Assembly (NCBI GenBank): GCA_005882595.1
Contig: VBFM01000094.1
Coordinates: 1 to 31,759 of the forward strand
Origin: Chloroflexota bacterium
GTDB lineage: Bacteria > Chloroflexota > Ktedonobacteria > Ktedonobacterales > Ktedonobacteraceae
Direction: 5' to 3'
DNA length: 31,759 nucleotides
Position 1 is the first letter of the stretch; every line of letters begins with the position of its first letter. The position numbers were made by a program, and so were the translations under genes. Below, piece by piece: positions 266-23,121 of the stretch. Under the pieces are notes generated by a model. That model was not told where the DNA came from. It searched no databases and saw nothing but the letters and a program-made list of their open reading frames with translations.

Positions 266-323
266 ACTACTTATCCGACTGCCTGACACGCAGTGTAGCA
301 CGTAGTGCGTTGGCAGTCGGAAT
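266..323 (+). repeat. Hairpin element, family H, copy A
   Basis: ccgactgcc (275-283) / ggcagtcgg (312-320) 9-bp inverted repeat; the 46-bp core is 43/46 identical to 14040-14085. Confidence 0.85.
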
Positions 324-364
324 ACGGACCATTAGGCATTATTCAGTCTCGATAAGGTATATGC

Positions 365-2969: not shown

Positions 2970-2989
2970 GGGCCCGATTTATCGCGCCC
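2966..2989 (+). repeat. REP element overlapping the rplI stop codon
   Basis: gtaggggcccgatttatcgcgccc; its GTAG contains the TAG stop at 2967-2969. Confidence 0.7.
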
Positions 2990-2997
2990 GCGCCGGA

Positions 2998-3096
2998 GCC
3001 AGGGCGACCGCAAGGGTGCGCCCCTACAATATACGAATGCGTCTGCTGCCTGATTTGTCCGTATATTGTAGGGGCGTACCCTTGCGGTCGCCCTGG
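2998..3096. repeat. REPIN (inverted REP doublet)
   Basis: gggcgaccgcaagggtgcgcccctac-aatatacg (3002-3035) is inverted against cgtatatt-gtaggggcgtacccttgcggtcgccc (3060-3093) with one mismatch. Confidence 0.85.
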
Positions 3097-13244: not shown

Positions 13245-13898
13245 ATGGAAATTTCCTGGCTTGGCCACTCGTGCTTTATGCTGCGTGGCAAGAACGTTAC
13301 CCTGATCGCCGATCCCTTTTCTCCTCAGCTAGGACACCCGCAAGGGGAACCTCTCAAGCTGGGCAAGGTCAATGCCCCCATCGTTACCATCAGCCATAAT
13401 CATCCTGGACACAATTTTGCCGAAGGCGTTGGTGGTAATCCTCGTGTGGTGCGTGGCCCTGGCGAATATGAGATCAGTGATGTTTTGATAACAGGCGTCG
13501 CTTCCTATCATGATAACAAACGCGGCGCCGAACGCGGACGCAATACCATTTATGTCATTCATATGGATGACCTTGTGATCTGTCACCTGGGAGACCTCGG
13601 CCATACACTGCAAGAAGAGCAGCTTGAAGAAGTTGCCGATGCTGATGTTTTGTTAGTTCCTATCAGTGGACAACATGTCCTCAATGCAGCGCAGGCCGCC
13701 GAGGTTATCAGCCAGGTTGAACCCCGCATCGTCATTCCTATGCATTATCCATCAGGTGAAACGCCGAATCCACTGGATAAGTTTTGCCGTGAGATGGGTA
13801 TCGAGGCGATTAATTCACAGTCAAAGTTGGTTATTACACATAGTACTTTGCCCGCGGAAACGCAGGTCGTCGTCCTTTCGAAGCGCGGCGCAAGCTGA
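13245..13898 (+). CDS. Metallo-beta-lactamase-fold Zn-dependent hydrolase
   Basis: WLGHSCF, TISHNHPGHN, CHLGDLGH, IPMHY motifs. Confidence 0.9.
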   Translation: MEISWLGHSCFMLRGKNVTLIADPFSPQLGHPQGEPLKLGKVNAPIVTISHNHPGHNFAEGVGGNPRVVRGPGEYEISDVLITGVASYHDNKRGAERGRNTIYVIHMDDLVICHLGDLGHTLQEEQLEEVADADVLLVPISGQHVLNAAQAAEVISQVEPRIVIPMHYPSGETPNPLDKFCREMGIEAINSQSKLVITHSTLPAETQVVVLSKRGAS

Positions 13899-13960: not shown

Positions 13961-14094
13961 AATACTACCTTGCCGACTGCCTAAGCCGCAGGCTAGCACG
14001 CAGTGCGTTGGCAGTCGGAAGAAGAGGAATACTACCTTGCCGACTGCCTGACACGCAGTGTAGAACACAGTGCGTTGGCAGTCGGAAGAAGAGG
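13961..14094 (+). repeat. Hairpin element family H, two tandem 67-bp copies (B1 13961-14027, B2 14028-14094)
   Basis: Units are 60/67 identical; each carries a ccgactgcc/ggcagtcgg stem. Confidence 0.9.
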
Positions 14095-14116
14095 AAAAAG
14101 AGACCAGGAGGACAGC

Positions 14117-15817
14117 ATGTCCAAATTCATTTTTGTTACGGGTGGTGTGGCATCTTCGGTAGGAAAGGGTATCACGGTCGCCTCTCTGGGCCGCTTGCTC
14201 AAGAATCGCGGAGTCTCGGTCGCCCTTATGAAGTTAGACCCTTACATCAATGTTGATCCAGGTACGATGTCGCCTTATCAGCATGGTGAGGTCTTTGTCA
14301 CCGATGATGGAGCGGAAACCGATCTTGATCTTGGCCACTACGAGCGTTTTACCGACGAGCCAGCATACCAGGCAAATAATGTAACAACGGGACAGGTCTA
14401 CGCTGCCGTTATTGGCAAGGAGCGCCGTGGCGAATATCTGGGAGGCACCATCCAGGTGATCCCCCATATCACCAATGAGATCAAGGAGCGCATCCATAAC
14501 GTTGCGCGTCAATCCGACGCGGATGTCGTGATTGTCGAAGTAGGCGGCACTGTCGGCGATATCGAGGGCGAGCCGTTTCTGGAGGCTATTCGCCAGATGC
14601 GTAAAGATGTAGGGCGTCGAGATGTACTGTATATGCACGTCACTCTATTGCCCTATCTGATGGCAACCAAAGAACTGAAAACCAAGCCAACCCAGCACAT
14701 TCAACCCGATGTGATCCTATGCCGTTCTGACTATCCCTTGAGCGACGACTTGCGCGAGAAAATTGCGCTCTTCTGCAATATCGAAGAACGCGCCGTTGTT
14801 CCCTTGCTCACTACCGAAACGATCTATGAGGTTCCACTCATCCTGGAAGAGGCGGGTCTGGGTGAATACCTTGTGCAGGAACTCAGTTTGCCCAAACACG
14901 AGCCTCAGATGCAGGAATGGCGCGAACTGGTTGCCAGGATCAAGCATCCTCGCCCGGAGCTGGTTATCGGGCTGATAGGCAAATACGTCGAACTGCATGA
15001 TGCATACCTCTCCGTGGCGGAGAGCTTGCGCCATGCCGGTTGGCATCATGGTGTCGATGTGCGTATCAAATGGATTAACTCCGAGGCCCTGGAAAAGATG
15101 GGCGAGGGCTATACGGAATTGCTGGAGGATGTTGCAGGCATTGTCGTACCCGGTGGTTTCGGTCATCGTGGTATCGAGGGCAAGATTAAAGCCGCCAACT
15201 TCGCTCGCCGCACGGGTACGCCCTATCTCGGACTCTGTCTGGGCCTGCAGGTCGCGGTGATCGAGTTTGCCCGCAATGTGCTGGGATTGACCGGTGCAAA
15301 TAGCACCGAATTTGATCCTCAGACTCCCTATCCCGTCATCGATTTAATGCCTACCCAGCGGCAAGTGGCGGATAAAGGTGGTACAATGCGTCTGGGGAAC
15401 TGGGTGTGTTGCCTGACCCCTGGCACTCGGGCCTATGAAGCCTACGGTGAGGCCATCGTGTTTGAGCGCCACCGTCATCGTTATGAATTCAACAACGAAT
15501 ATCGTAAACGTATGGAGGCGCATGGTGTGAAGGTTAGCGGTCGCTCGGCTGATAATAGCCTGGTGGAGATCATCGAACTGGCGCATCATCCCTGGTTCGT
15601 CGCTTCGCAATTCCATCCGGAGTTTAAGAGCCGTCCTACTCGTCCTCATCCGCTCTTCCGAGATTTTGTGGGCGCGTGCCTGCAGGGGGAAGAAGAGAAA
15701 CAGCGCGCAGCGTACGAGGCATTTGAACGCCAGGTAGTAGGAGCTTCGGCGGAGCTTGCTGAACATGCTTCCATGCACCATACATCCGATATGCCGGATT
15801 CTCGCATCGAGAAGTAG
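14117..15817 (+). CDS. pyrG: CTP synthase, with an apparent in-frame ~9-codon deletion after KTKPTQH
   Basis: [45 protein letters not shown] nucleophile, RHRHRYE, QFHPEF; ATG 14117 has a GGAGG RBS. Confidence 0.97.
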
Positions 15818-15819
15818 CA

Positions 15820-17172
15820 ATGATGTACCTGAGCCAACTACTCGGCACCCCTGTCGAGGACCCGCAGGGAGTGCGAGTAGGTAAAATCATCGATATCGTC
15901 ACCCCGGTAGGGACGCGATCTAGCACGCCCACTACCTCATCCACTCCTGCAATTTCTTCACTCTCTACTCCTTCATCCATCCCCACGTTAGTAGTTGAAG
16001 GCCAGGCCGGTCAATCGTGGTATGTGCCTATAGAGGATGTGGAATGGAATGGCAACATCTTACGTCTGCACGTACCGGTCGATCAACTTCCAACGCGACC
16101 AACCGAACCGCATGAAGTGAGCCTGGCGCAGGAAGTGCTTGATAAACAGGTCATCGATGTTGAGCATAAAAAGGCCGTGCGTGTGAACGATGTCTGCTTG
16201 AGCGACGACTGGCGTATTTTGGGTATTGATAACAGCACGCTAGGGTTAGTGCGCCGTCTCGCACCATCCTGGTTACTCGGCGCGAGGAGCAAGCGTGCCT
16301 CCACCACGCTCATTCCCTGGGAACATATTGAACTGATTAGCGCGCAACCGGTTGAGGAAGAGGCTCGCGCCGACACGGGCGCGATAAACCAGGCCTCTAC
16401 ATCGTCAACCTCGCGCGTTGGACGCCCACAGAGTGGTCAGCTAGCCGAGCTGCATCCGGCAGATATCGCTGATATCGTGCATCAACTCACCCCTGGACAA
16501 GGGGCGCGCCTGCTGGAGGGACTGGACGACGAAACCGCCGCCGACACCCTGGAAGAAATCGACACGGAGCGCCAGAGCCATATCCTTGAAAATATTGACC
16601 CGGAACGCGCCGCCGATATCCTGGAAGAGATGGAACCCGACGAAGCCGCCGACTTACTCGCTCGCTTGCCGGAGGAACGTGCGCAGCAACTCCTGCGCTT
16701 GATGAATCCAGAAGAGTCTGAGGATGTGCAGGAATTGCTCGAATACGAAGAAGATACAGCAGGTGGCCTCATGACCACGGACTTCGTGGTGATCGATGCT
16801 ACAAAGAGCGCAGGAGATGCATTAGAAGCAGCGCGCTTCAATATTCGCGAGAAGGATGTACGTGTCGCCTATGTGTACTGCATCGCGGATGAGGAAAAAG
16901 AAGATTATACACTGCTGGGCGTCGTTTCCCTGTGGGATTTACTGATAGCCGACCCGGCCCAGCCCTTGCAAGAACTCATGGAGACCGATCTTATCACCGT
17001 ACAGCCCGATACTGACCCACGCACCGTTGCCGAAATCATGGCGAAATACAATCTCCTCGCCGTCCCCGTCGTGAACGAGGAGCGCGTTATCGAAGGCGTC
17101 GTGATGGTGGATGATGCTCTGGATGTGCTGCTACCTGACGAGAGGCGCCGGAAGCCTACCAGGATGTATTAG
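15820..17172 (+). CDS. MgtE-like cytoplasmic protein (PRC-barrel + MgtE N-terminal + CBS pair), no membrane domain
   Basis: PRC-like YLSQLLGTPVEDPQGVRVGKI, LHPADIADI, YEEDTAGGLMTT, KYNLLAVPVV...DDALDVL; no hydrophobic C-terminal region. Confidence 0.85.
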   Translation: MMYLSQLLGTPVEDPQGVRVGKIIDIVTPVGTRSSTPTTSSTPAISSLSTPSSIPTLVVEGQAGQSWYVPIEDVEWNGNILRLHVPVDQLPTRPTEPHEVSLAQEVLDKQVIDVEHKKAVRVNDVCLSDDWRILGIDNSTLGLVRRLAPSWLLGARSKRASTTLIPWEHIELISAQPVEEEARADTGAINQASTSSTSRVGRPQSGQLAELHPADIADIVHQLTPGQGARLLEGLDDETAADTLEEIDTERQSHILENIDPERAADILEEMEPDEAADLLARLPEERAQQLLRLMNPEESEDVQELLEYEEDTAGGLMTTDFVVIDATKSAGDALEAARFNIREKDVRVAYVYCIADEEKEDYTLLGVVSLWDLLIADPAQPLQELMETDLITVQPDTDPRTVAEIMAKYNLLAVPVVNEERVIEGVVMVDDALDVLLPDERRRKPTRMY

Positions 17173-21996: not shown

Positions 21997-22079
21997 ACTT
22001 GTAGTTCCTCCTCGTATACAGTAGTATAGCACAGGAGGGTTACTGATGATGTTTCCAATCGTTATGTACACTACATGCT

Positions 22080-22191
22080 CCTTGCGTCCTGCCTGAGCGA
22101 AGCGCACACCTTGCATCTTGCCTGAGCGTAGCTAGCACGCAGTGCGTTGGCAAGATGCCTTACAAGAAGCACGCAGTGCGTTGGCAGGATG
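22080..22191 (+). repeat. Hairpin element family H, two nested copies
   Basis: Inner stem gcatcttgcc (22113-22122) / ggcaagatgc (22149-22158); outer stem gtcctgcc / ggcaggat; both end in agcacgcagtgcgttggca. Confidence 0.85.
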
Positions 22192-22248
22192 TCTTTCAAG
22201 GTGCCGACATCCCGCGTAACGAGGAATGCAAAAGTTCAAGGAAGTAAT

Positions 22249-23121
22249 ATGCGAATTATACATGACCTGGATGAAATGACCGAAACGGCGCGAGGCTGGC
22301 TTTCTGGTGGAATTATTGGATTCATCCCGACGGTTGGCTATCTTCATGCCGGTCATGCATCATTGATACAGGCGGCGCGCCAGGAATGTGAATACAGCAT
22401 CGTCAGTATTTTTGTGAACCCGCTCGAGTTCGATCAAGACGAGGCCCCTATTCTCTATCCAAATAATTTGACCGGTGATATACAGTTTCTGGATAAAGAA
22501 CAGGTGGATGTGGTGTTTATTCCTCGTTTCGAAGAGATGTACCCGCCAGATTTTTCTACCTATGTGGTGGTCTTTGGCCCGGTAGCCGAACGACTGGAAG
22601 CAGCATTCCGCCCTGAACATGTGCGTGGCTATGCTACCAACATCGTCAAATTATTGCAACTTGTGCGGCCCGATATGGCCTATTTTGGGCAAAACAATGC
22701 CCAGCATGTGGCATTGATCCGTCGGCTCGTGCGTGATTTGAGTATAGATGTGAAGTTACAGGTGTTGCCGACCGTGCGCGATACGGATGGGCTTGCGCTA
22801 AGTATTCGCAATCAGGCCCTCAGTCCTGAAGAGCGGCAAGCAGCACCCCTACTGTATCAAGCGCTGCTGGCAGGGAAAGCGCTGATCGAACAAGGTGAGC
22901 GCAACCTGGCCCTCATTGAAAAAACGATGGTTGACGTAATAACGGCCTCACCTTTCATCAAGTTGGACTACGCCACTGCTTGTGACCCTCAAAGCTTCGA
23001 ACAGCCAGGTGACATGCTGCCAGAAACGCTTACTGATTTGCTGCTGGTAGTTGCGGCACACTTCGGTACTACGCGCCTCAATGACAATCTGCTCCTACGT
23101 GATGGTCACTGGCTAATCTGA
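22249..23121 (+). CDS. panC: Pantoate--beta-alanine ligase (PanC)-like protein with divergent active site
   Basis: GFIPTVGYLHAGHASL (HxGH), SIFVNP, RPDMAYFG, VRDTDGLALSIRN, RLNDN; full length. Confidence 0.8.
   Translation: MRIIHDLDEMTETARGWLSGGIIGFIPTVGYLHAGHASLIQAARQECEYSIVSIFVNPLEFDQDEAPILYPNNLTGDIQFLDKEQVDVVFIPRFEEMYPPDFSTYVVVFGPVAERLEAAFRPEHVRGYATNIVKLLQLVRPDMAYFGQNNAQHVALIRRLVRDLSIDVKLQVLPTVRDTDGLALSIRNQALSPEERQAAPLLYQALLAGKALIEQGERNLALIEKTMVDVITASPFIKLDYATACDPQSFEQPGDMLPETLTDLLLVVAAHFGTTRLNDNLLLRDGHWLI

Follow-up and report, generated by a model that had tools for sequence, protein, structure and literature searches.

The window, by which we mean the whole 31,759-nt stretch of DNA that was analysed, is contig C85 of a 4.43-Mb, 520-contig, 74%-complete genome. 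Upstream of three plus-strand genes (an RNase D-like ORF, pyrG, and a panC-like gene) it carries copies of a small structured repeat. Scanning the window with the 17-nt core CACGCAGTGCGTTGGCA (≤3 mismatches) gave five matches, all on the plus strand (at 299, 13997, 14064, 22136, and 22170), against a chance expectation of 0.13, and none of 100 shuffles reached five. The five copies of the original prediction are therefore confirmed at their loci, whereas the bounds of the units had to be corrected to 266–332, 13964–14030, 14031–14097, and 22071–22203, the last of these being a nested pair.

From 5′ to 3′, each unit is organized as leader, P1a, TGA, P2, TAG, P3, CGTT, P1b, and tail. The leader reads (T)ACT(A/T)CCTT(G), and the tail comprises ∼12 nt. 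P1 is a 9-bp outer stem of nearly unconstrained sequence, prolonged by a CCTT/AAGG-type foot, and encloses the two small hairpins P2 and P3. P2 has a variable stem of 3–5 bp, and P3 follows the pattern G-N-A-C GCA G-T-N′-C; both are closed by GNA triloops. The unpaired junction letters TGA, TAG, and CGTT are invariant at the branch point. The repeat measures 59–67 nt across the whole family, which places it in the 60–70-base size class. A three-way junction is predicted for either strand, as RNA and as DNA, with a predicted RNA stem stability of about −26 kcal/mol. The pairing that had been proposed for a hairpin element stands, but the units fold into a three-way junction and not into a simple hairpin. 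The paired blocks on which that proposal was built (cgac/gtcg, atct/agat, and gtcc/ggat with one G-U) were recovered and represent the variable part of P1.

Copy A (266–332, plus strand) comprises the leader (266–274), P1a (275–283), TGA, P2 (287–295), TAG, P3 (299–307), CGTT, P1b (312–320), and the tail (321–332). It matches our covariance model R1 at C85:259-335 with 72.7 bits, and the three-way fold is predicted for its DNA. The copy ends ∼32 nt upstream of the TTG codon at 365 that opens the RNase D-like ORF. A promoter had been predicted upstream of copy A; a consensus scan of positions 1–600 returned a single call, at 8–36, and none directly upstream of the copy, and the call rate was no higher than in shuffles.

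Copies B1 and B2 form a flush 67-nt head-to-tail tandem on the plus strand, between a gene with the Pfam labels of an MBL-fold hydrolase (13245–13898, plus strand) and pyrG, which encodes CTP synthase (14117–15817, plus strand). B1, the 5′ unit (13964–14030; R1 match of 77 bits), consists of P1a (13973–13981), P2 (13985–13993), P3 (13997–14005), P1b (14010–14018), and the tail (14019–14030), and the three-way junction is its minimum-energy fold both as RNA and as DNA. B2, the second unit (14031–14097), is built in the same way from P1a (14040–14048), P2 (14052–14060), P3 (14064–14072), P1b (14077–14085), and the tail (14086–14097). Its P3 contains one A·G mismatch; in strain L110 these positions pair, as AAC/GTT. 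The end of B2 lies 19 nt from the pyrG ATG at 14117. Together with the distances of copy A and of the panC-like locus (∼45 nt, see below), this replaces the previously given range of 32–58 nt between copies and start codons. Upstream of the tandem, reading the sequence alone revealed GTAG at the head of a short, imperfect hairpin that looks like an isolated P3 (13928–13955, plus strand); it is found in all strains compared and is possibly a decayed fragment. The pyrG product of the window has 566 amino acids, whereas a strain contig of 98% identity (L102) encodes 575, with an extra SVKELLRVG (27 nt) after KTKPTQH, corresponding to window position 14698/14699. As judged by this comparison, either 27 nt have been deleted in frame from the window gene or the assembly is in error there.

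At the third locus, one copy is inserted into another. The 5′ part of the outer copy (22071–22108, plus strand) contains the leader, P1a (22085–22093), TGA, and P2 (22097–22103), and its 3′ part (22170–22203, plus strand) contains P3 (22170–22178), CGTT, P1b (22183–22191), and the tail; positions 22085–22093 and 22183–22191 pair to form the outer P1. Between these parts lies a complete inner copy (22109–22169, plus strand) with its own P1a (22114–22122) and P1b (22149–22157), which gives an R1 match at C85:22098-22172 with 77.5 bits. The inner copy occupies the place of the outer copy's TAG between P2 and P3. The outer copy ends ∼45 nt upstream of the panC-like ATG at 22249.

The proposed covariation held up in a larger alignment. 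When 40 copies from this genome were compared with the three-helix structure, which was supplied by hand, 97% of the cells were paired, and 10 of the 16 pairs showed compensatory changes, a result equaled by none of 500 shuffles. Control structures that were slid along the same alignment dropped to 16–55% paired. Thirty distinct copies from other genomes, aligned by fitting to R1, were 98.5% paired, with compensatory changes in 12 of 16 pairs. RNAalifold on a MAFFT alignment recovered P1 alone, because the length of P2 varies. G·T mismatches outnumber A·C mismatches by 14 to 1 in P3 and by 17 to 10 in P1, an excess that hints that the written strand is the folding strand.

In flank profiles, conservation stops ∼10 nt 5′ of P1a and ∼12 nt 3′ of P1b. 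At the last flanking base (position −10), 38 of 58 copies have T, and GA(N)T is frequent, although no fixed motif emerges; the dinucleotide TA is frequent at both borders of the unit. At the oppC–oppD junction (locus L135), one strain carries a unit from which P3 is exactly absent, with TAG fused to CGTT, and some genomic copies are missing P2. The small hairpins therefore act as separable modules.

The element had not been recognized as a named family, and the Rfam search bears this out: no family matched the window at the gathering threshold, and the E-value mode returned only chance microRNA matches with E above 1. Two further readings were dropped, namely a hammerhead or twister ribozyme (the core letters CUGAUGA/GAAA are absent) and an integron attC site (GTTRRRY with its complement is absent). 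Our literature search found no paper on repeats of Ktedonobacteraceae.

Beyond the window, the core with ≤2 mismatches occurs 31 times in the genome, an nhmmer profile finds 82 copies, and R1, which was built from 40 copies of this genome, finds 91. R1 has matches in 21 of the 36 Ktedonobacteraceae genomes that were scanned, each from another genus, with counts in these 36 sister genera ranging from 0 to more than 70 per genome, the upper figure being a lower bound. No match was obtained in 24 genomes from other families of the order or in 142 Chloroflexota genomes outside Ktedonobacteraceae. Exact-pattern matches in public genomes all fall in metagenome-assembled genomes labeled Ktedonobacteraceae or uncultured Chloroflexia.

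We compared alleles on contigs of other metagenomes that encode identical neighboring proteins. Copies are gained, lost, tandemly duplicated, and nested between near-identical strains. Two sites are cleanly empty in some strains. On contig C50, one strain lacks the copy and reads TTTTACTA|ATCTGAGG, whereas the filled allele has 65 nt between TTTTACTA and ATCTGAGG with nothing duplicated. Between minD and minE, ten contigs of 97.7–99% identity have an intact REP, GTAGGGGCTCGATT|TATCGCGCCC, into the loop of which 59 nt are inserted in this genome, again with no duplication. At these two sites the element has therefore entered with no target duplication. Short-read assemblies can miscount tandem units, which leaves these two clean empty sites unaffected and bears on the arrays that follow. 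Upstream of pyrG, strains have one, two, three, or more units, including one chimeric unit; P3 occurs there as CAC/GTG and as AAC/GTT, and copy B2 of the window represents the mismatched intermediate AAC/GTG. Four forms occur between oppC and oppD: a simple copy, a copy with a second one in its P3 loop, a simple copy next to a composite, and the P3-less unit. The nested pair upstream of panC is present in all strains compared; a 5′ half-unit of 29 nt is duplicated in L113, and L119 has a recombinant form. Upstream of tatA, strains have zero, one, or two copies; the insert is flanked by an 8-nt direct repeat, one copy of which is native, and the junction is ambiguous. In the same region, a LytR_cpsA_psr gene in L208 and L212 replaces the sigma-70 gene and the 98-aa ORF of L207, a break in synteny at the element that suggests recombination between copies.

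The sites that received copies point to a structural preference. In this genome, GTAG-headed REPs number more than 1000, and REPIN doublets occur in several sequence families. It is very REP-rich for a Chloroflexota, and the window itself has REPs headed GTAGGG(G/A)(C/T) at ∼2416–2439 and 15907–15930. Twelve copies border the arm of a GTAG-type REP, and most can be seen to lie within the REP loop; in 11 of these 12 GTAG lies on the element's own strand. The targeted REPs belong to several sequence variants, indicating independent insertion events. At ∼10 loci the target is another copy, with the inner copy in the P2–P3 junction or in the P3 loop of the outer one. Tandem and nested copies are always on the same strand, and neighboring copies share the strand in 17 cases and oppose each other in none; at the scale of contigs, taken as a proxy for replichore bias, orientation agreed in 12 cases and disagreed in 6, which is not significant. 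Copies land preferentially in the single-stranded parts of hairpins, namely in the apical loops of REPs and, where the target is another copy, in its junction or its P3 loop. By inserting into REP loops, the element behaves as a parasite of REPs.

Copies also occur inside genes. Thirteen lie in long ORFs, 10 antisense and 3 sense, an excess that is to be expected, since two of the three sense frames are closed by TGA and TAG; the frame left open reads L-S-E-A-R-T-Q-S-V. Pfam domains are found on both sides of the copy in uvrA, cydA, and the genes for a glycogen-debranching enzyme (GDE), an aldose epimerase, an adenylate-cyclase/STAND protein, and an MTS methyltransferase. The gene-internal copies are in frame and stop-free. 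In UvrA (C147:1374-4520, locus L144), an insert of 77 residues relative to solved structures consists of REP, element, and REP, and follows directly after the UvrB-interaction domain, before the next conserved segment. CydA has an insert of ∼20 residues relative to solved structures; the alignments of most of 28 relatives break at residues 212–229, and in the 13 relatives read in detail a GKRDEY(R/H)RKG-type stretch is uninterrupted at the insert site. The 63-nt insert in cydA is flanked by a 9-nt direct repeat, the native copy of which encodes D-E-Y. Copies in genes survive only in frame and without stops, adding ∼20 residues, as in CydA.

Relative to genes, the family is multi-copy, dispersed, and without preferred orientation. 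By rough ORF calls made in this analysis, 20 copies between co-directional genes point with them and 23 against them; 13 lie between divergent and 5 between convergent genes. Copies are found inside operons in either orientation (rplK–rplA, rplJ–rplL, atpH–atpA, pdhA–pdhB, minD–minE, and oppC–oppD), and downstream of genes. We found no T-run 3′ of the copies, which are therefore not terminators. At pyrG, the three closest relatives (90% identical in the PyrG protein) have no element, and only ∼15–20 nt separate the hydrolase stop codon, the ribosome-binding site, and the ATG. The stop codon abuts the ribosome-binding site in these relatives, and the tandem accordingly sits in what is their operon junction. 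Only 1 of 29 relatives has a copy upstream of pyrG, and the P1 of that copy is unrelated.

These positions bear on two readings at the RNA level. According to the original prediction, the copies could be a cis-regulatory leader RNA. A riboswitch-like or attenuator 5′ leader of housekeeping genes would be in keeping with the stable, covarying fold and with the five window copies, all co-oriented with the downstream gene and ending 19–45 nt from its start. The common orientation, however, holds for the window and disappears genome-wide. In addition, pyrG has no upstream copy in 28 of 29 relatives, the closest three included; copy number at a single site differs between strains; copies lie in coding sequences, downstream of genes, and antisense in operons; and Rfam provides no match. 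A conserved position in sense orientation upstream of orthologous genes was looked for and not found. The element is not a dedicated gene-leader RNA, and a leader role for it is hardly credible; if pyrG, panC, or the RNase D-like gene is affected at all, this would be a side effect of the stable stem carried in the transcript. Alternatively, a mobile repeat could have been partly co-opted by the host at the RNA level, for instance in processing or stability inside operons. The operon-internal copies and their strong stems without T-runs are compatible with this idea, which we consider unlikely given that these copies occur in both orientations and that sister strains have empty versions of the same sites. 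The other alternative of the original prediction, a self-propagating, non-autonomous element of ∼65 nt, agrees well with the ∼91 copies, their patchy occurrence among genera, and the polymorphism between near-identical strains. The hairpins very probably belong to a non-autonomous mobile DNA repeat that is specific to the family Ktedonobacteraceae.

Two other modes of spread were weighed against the same data. A classical MITE that depends on a DDE transposase, such as an IS630/Tc1-like enzyme with a TA target, would be in line with the inverted-repeat-like leader and tail, the TA often seen at both borders, and the 8–9-nt direct repeats that flank the insertions at tatA and cydA. Yet nothing is duplicated at the two clean sites, and a duplicated TA would require a 1-nt deletion at each of them; the TA model also demands an atypical one-T loop for all REP-loop insertions examined in detail. 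Moreover, the "terminal repeats" show free covariation rather than conservation, and a search of the assembly retrieved no partner insertion sequence bearing such ends, which makes this origin very improbable. Somewhat less improbable, though still unlikely, is a spread without any transposition, in which copies would arise at hairpins during replication, through template switching or through recombination guided by microhomology. Such events would explain the flush tandem arrays, the chimeric units and half-unit duplications, the insertions in hairpin loops, and the 8–9-nt identities between target and element end at tatA and cydA. They would not explain single copies dispersed over many contigs or the two insertions without microhomology (C50 and minD–minE), and the invariance of the junction letters across genera suggests recognition by a protein. 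The tatA and cydA sites may reflect either a target duplication or a homology-guided event.

For a mobile repeat of this kind, we propose that the mobilizing enzyme would read the fold and not the sequence, and that compensatory changes would be kept for this reason. The element would move as folded single-stranded DNA, on which a strand-specific enzyme would act in trans. The likeliest candidate, still a tentative one, is an HUH enzyme of the Y1 type, of the RAYT or IS200/IS605 kind, which would be compatible with insertion without duplication, with strand-specific behavior, with unpaired letters being conserved at the feet of the hairpins, and with the head-to-tail tandems. More speculatively, the element could be the minimal substrate of a new structure-guided transposition of single-stranded DNA that is aimed at hairpin loops and leaves no target duplication, driven by a RAYT-type or by a new three-way-junction-reading enzyme.

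The genome encodes two RAYT-like Y1 proteins, at C434:757-1122 (minus strand, locus L001) and C152:1692-2054 (plus strand, locus L002). Both genes are bracketed by inverted long REPs headed GTAGGGGCG(G/A)GGGCGG, the classic RAYT–REP arrangement; these REPs are of the GTAG type and distinct from the three-way-junction element. Among 20 Y1 transposase loci in eight genomes, no copy lies within ∼1 kb, and the presence of Y1 genes does not track copy number (12 copies and no Y1 in genome G020, six Y1 and no copies in G027). A long autonomous partner with the same arms was searched for in the assembly, and only nested copies and chance pairs were retrieved. Domain searches gave no match to IS110 and none to IS91, the latter likewise without a match in the control genomes, and no IS200-type TnpA was found in the assembly. 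The genome has ten TnpB-like ORFs; R1, applied to six of these loci, gave a single match, in a neighboring ORF. One of the ten lies in a TnpB-only IS605-like element (C24:1560-2867) with GC-rich end hairpins of its own, which on detailed reading are unlike the element. The adjacent ORF (C24:2910-4352) contains an in-frame copy at 2986–3071.

The spread of REP-like repeats has so far been largely inferred, not observed. Here, a small structured repeat is caught moving in natural soil populations, as seen from filled and empty alleles, nesting, and strand-specific targeting of REP loops. If the RAYT version of the mechanism were true, this would be the first natural, population-level record of RAYT-driven insertion. 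Oligonucleotides of 65 nt, together with the known targets, provide defined substrates for enzyme biochemistry. The gene-internal copies demonstrate that selfish DNA in protein-coding genes is not limited to reduced intracellular genomes. For annotation, copies should be masked, as they are otherwise mistaken for leader RNAs, extend ORFs, and break Ktedonobacteraceae assemblies built from short reads; the tandem arrays of 67-nt units can serve as strain markers.

Several known systems share part of these features. The Correia, RUP, and Nezha MITEs are alike in size class, in their dispersed intergenic copies, and in putative co-transcription with neighboring genes, whereas their conserved terminal inverted repeats and fixed target duplication have no equivalent in the element. 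With the ends of IS200/IS605 and with PATEs, the element has in common the absence of target duplication (at the clean sites), strand specificity, head-to-tail tandems, and a pair of small hairpins whose 5′ feet carry conserved letters, as well as a weak left-flank preference for a short motif ending in T. In contrast to IS200/IS605, a long outer stem that covaries surrounds its two hairpins, a conserved 4–5-nt target could not be defined, and the TnpB-carrying element of this genome on contig C24 ends in different hairpins.

Insertion in frame into genes has been described for the Rickettsia palindromic elements (RPEs) and the Coxiella MITEs (PMC2229807, PMC10969869, PMC5896051). The likeness to these is one of behavior, in that a small palindromic repeat is tolerated in frame and adds a peptide between domains; kinship at the sequence level is not expected. 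The present element is shorter than the RPEs (∼65 versus 100–150 nt), branched, and polymorphic in natural populations, and it resides in a Chloroflexota that lives freely in soil and has a large genome. A mobilizing enzyme is likewise not known for the RPEs.

REP, BIME, and REPIN sequences mobilized by RAYT (TnpA-REP, a Y1 HUH enzyme) in Proteobacteria resemble the element in being short, GC-rich, and structure-conserving, with tens to hundreds of copies, compensatory changes, and clustering. The P3 hairpin of the element is directly preceded by (N)TAG, and the element shares its genome with true GTAG-type REPs and RAYT-like genes. The original prediction had set it apart from the co-occurring REPs by the lack of a 5′ GTAG foot, and this distinction is borne out, with the internal (N)TAG before P3 as the only echo of it: the 5′ end reads (T)ACT(A/T)CCTT. 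The element flanks no Y1 gene examined, and its clusters are exclusively direct (17 to 0), never the inverted doublet of a REPIN. Whereas a REP is a single hairpin, the element is a branched three-way junction that inserts into REP loops and often lies in frame within genes.
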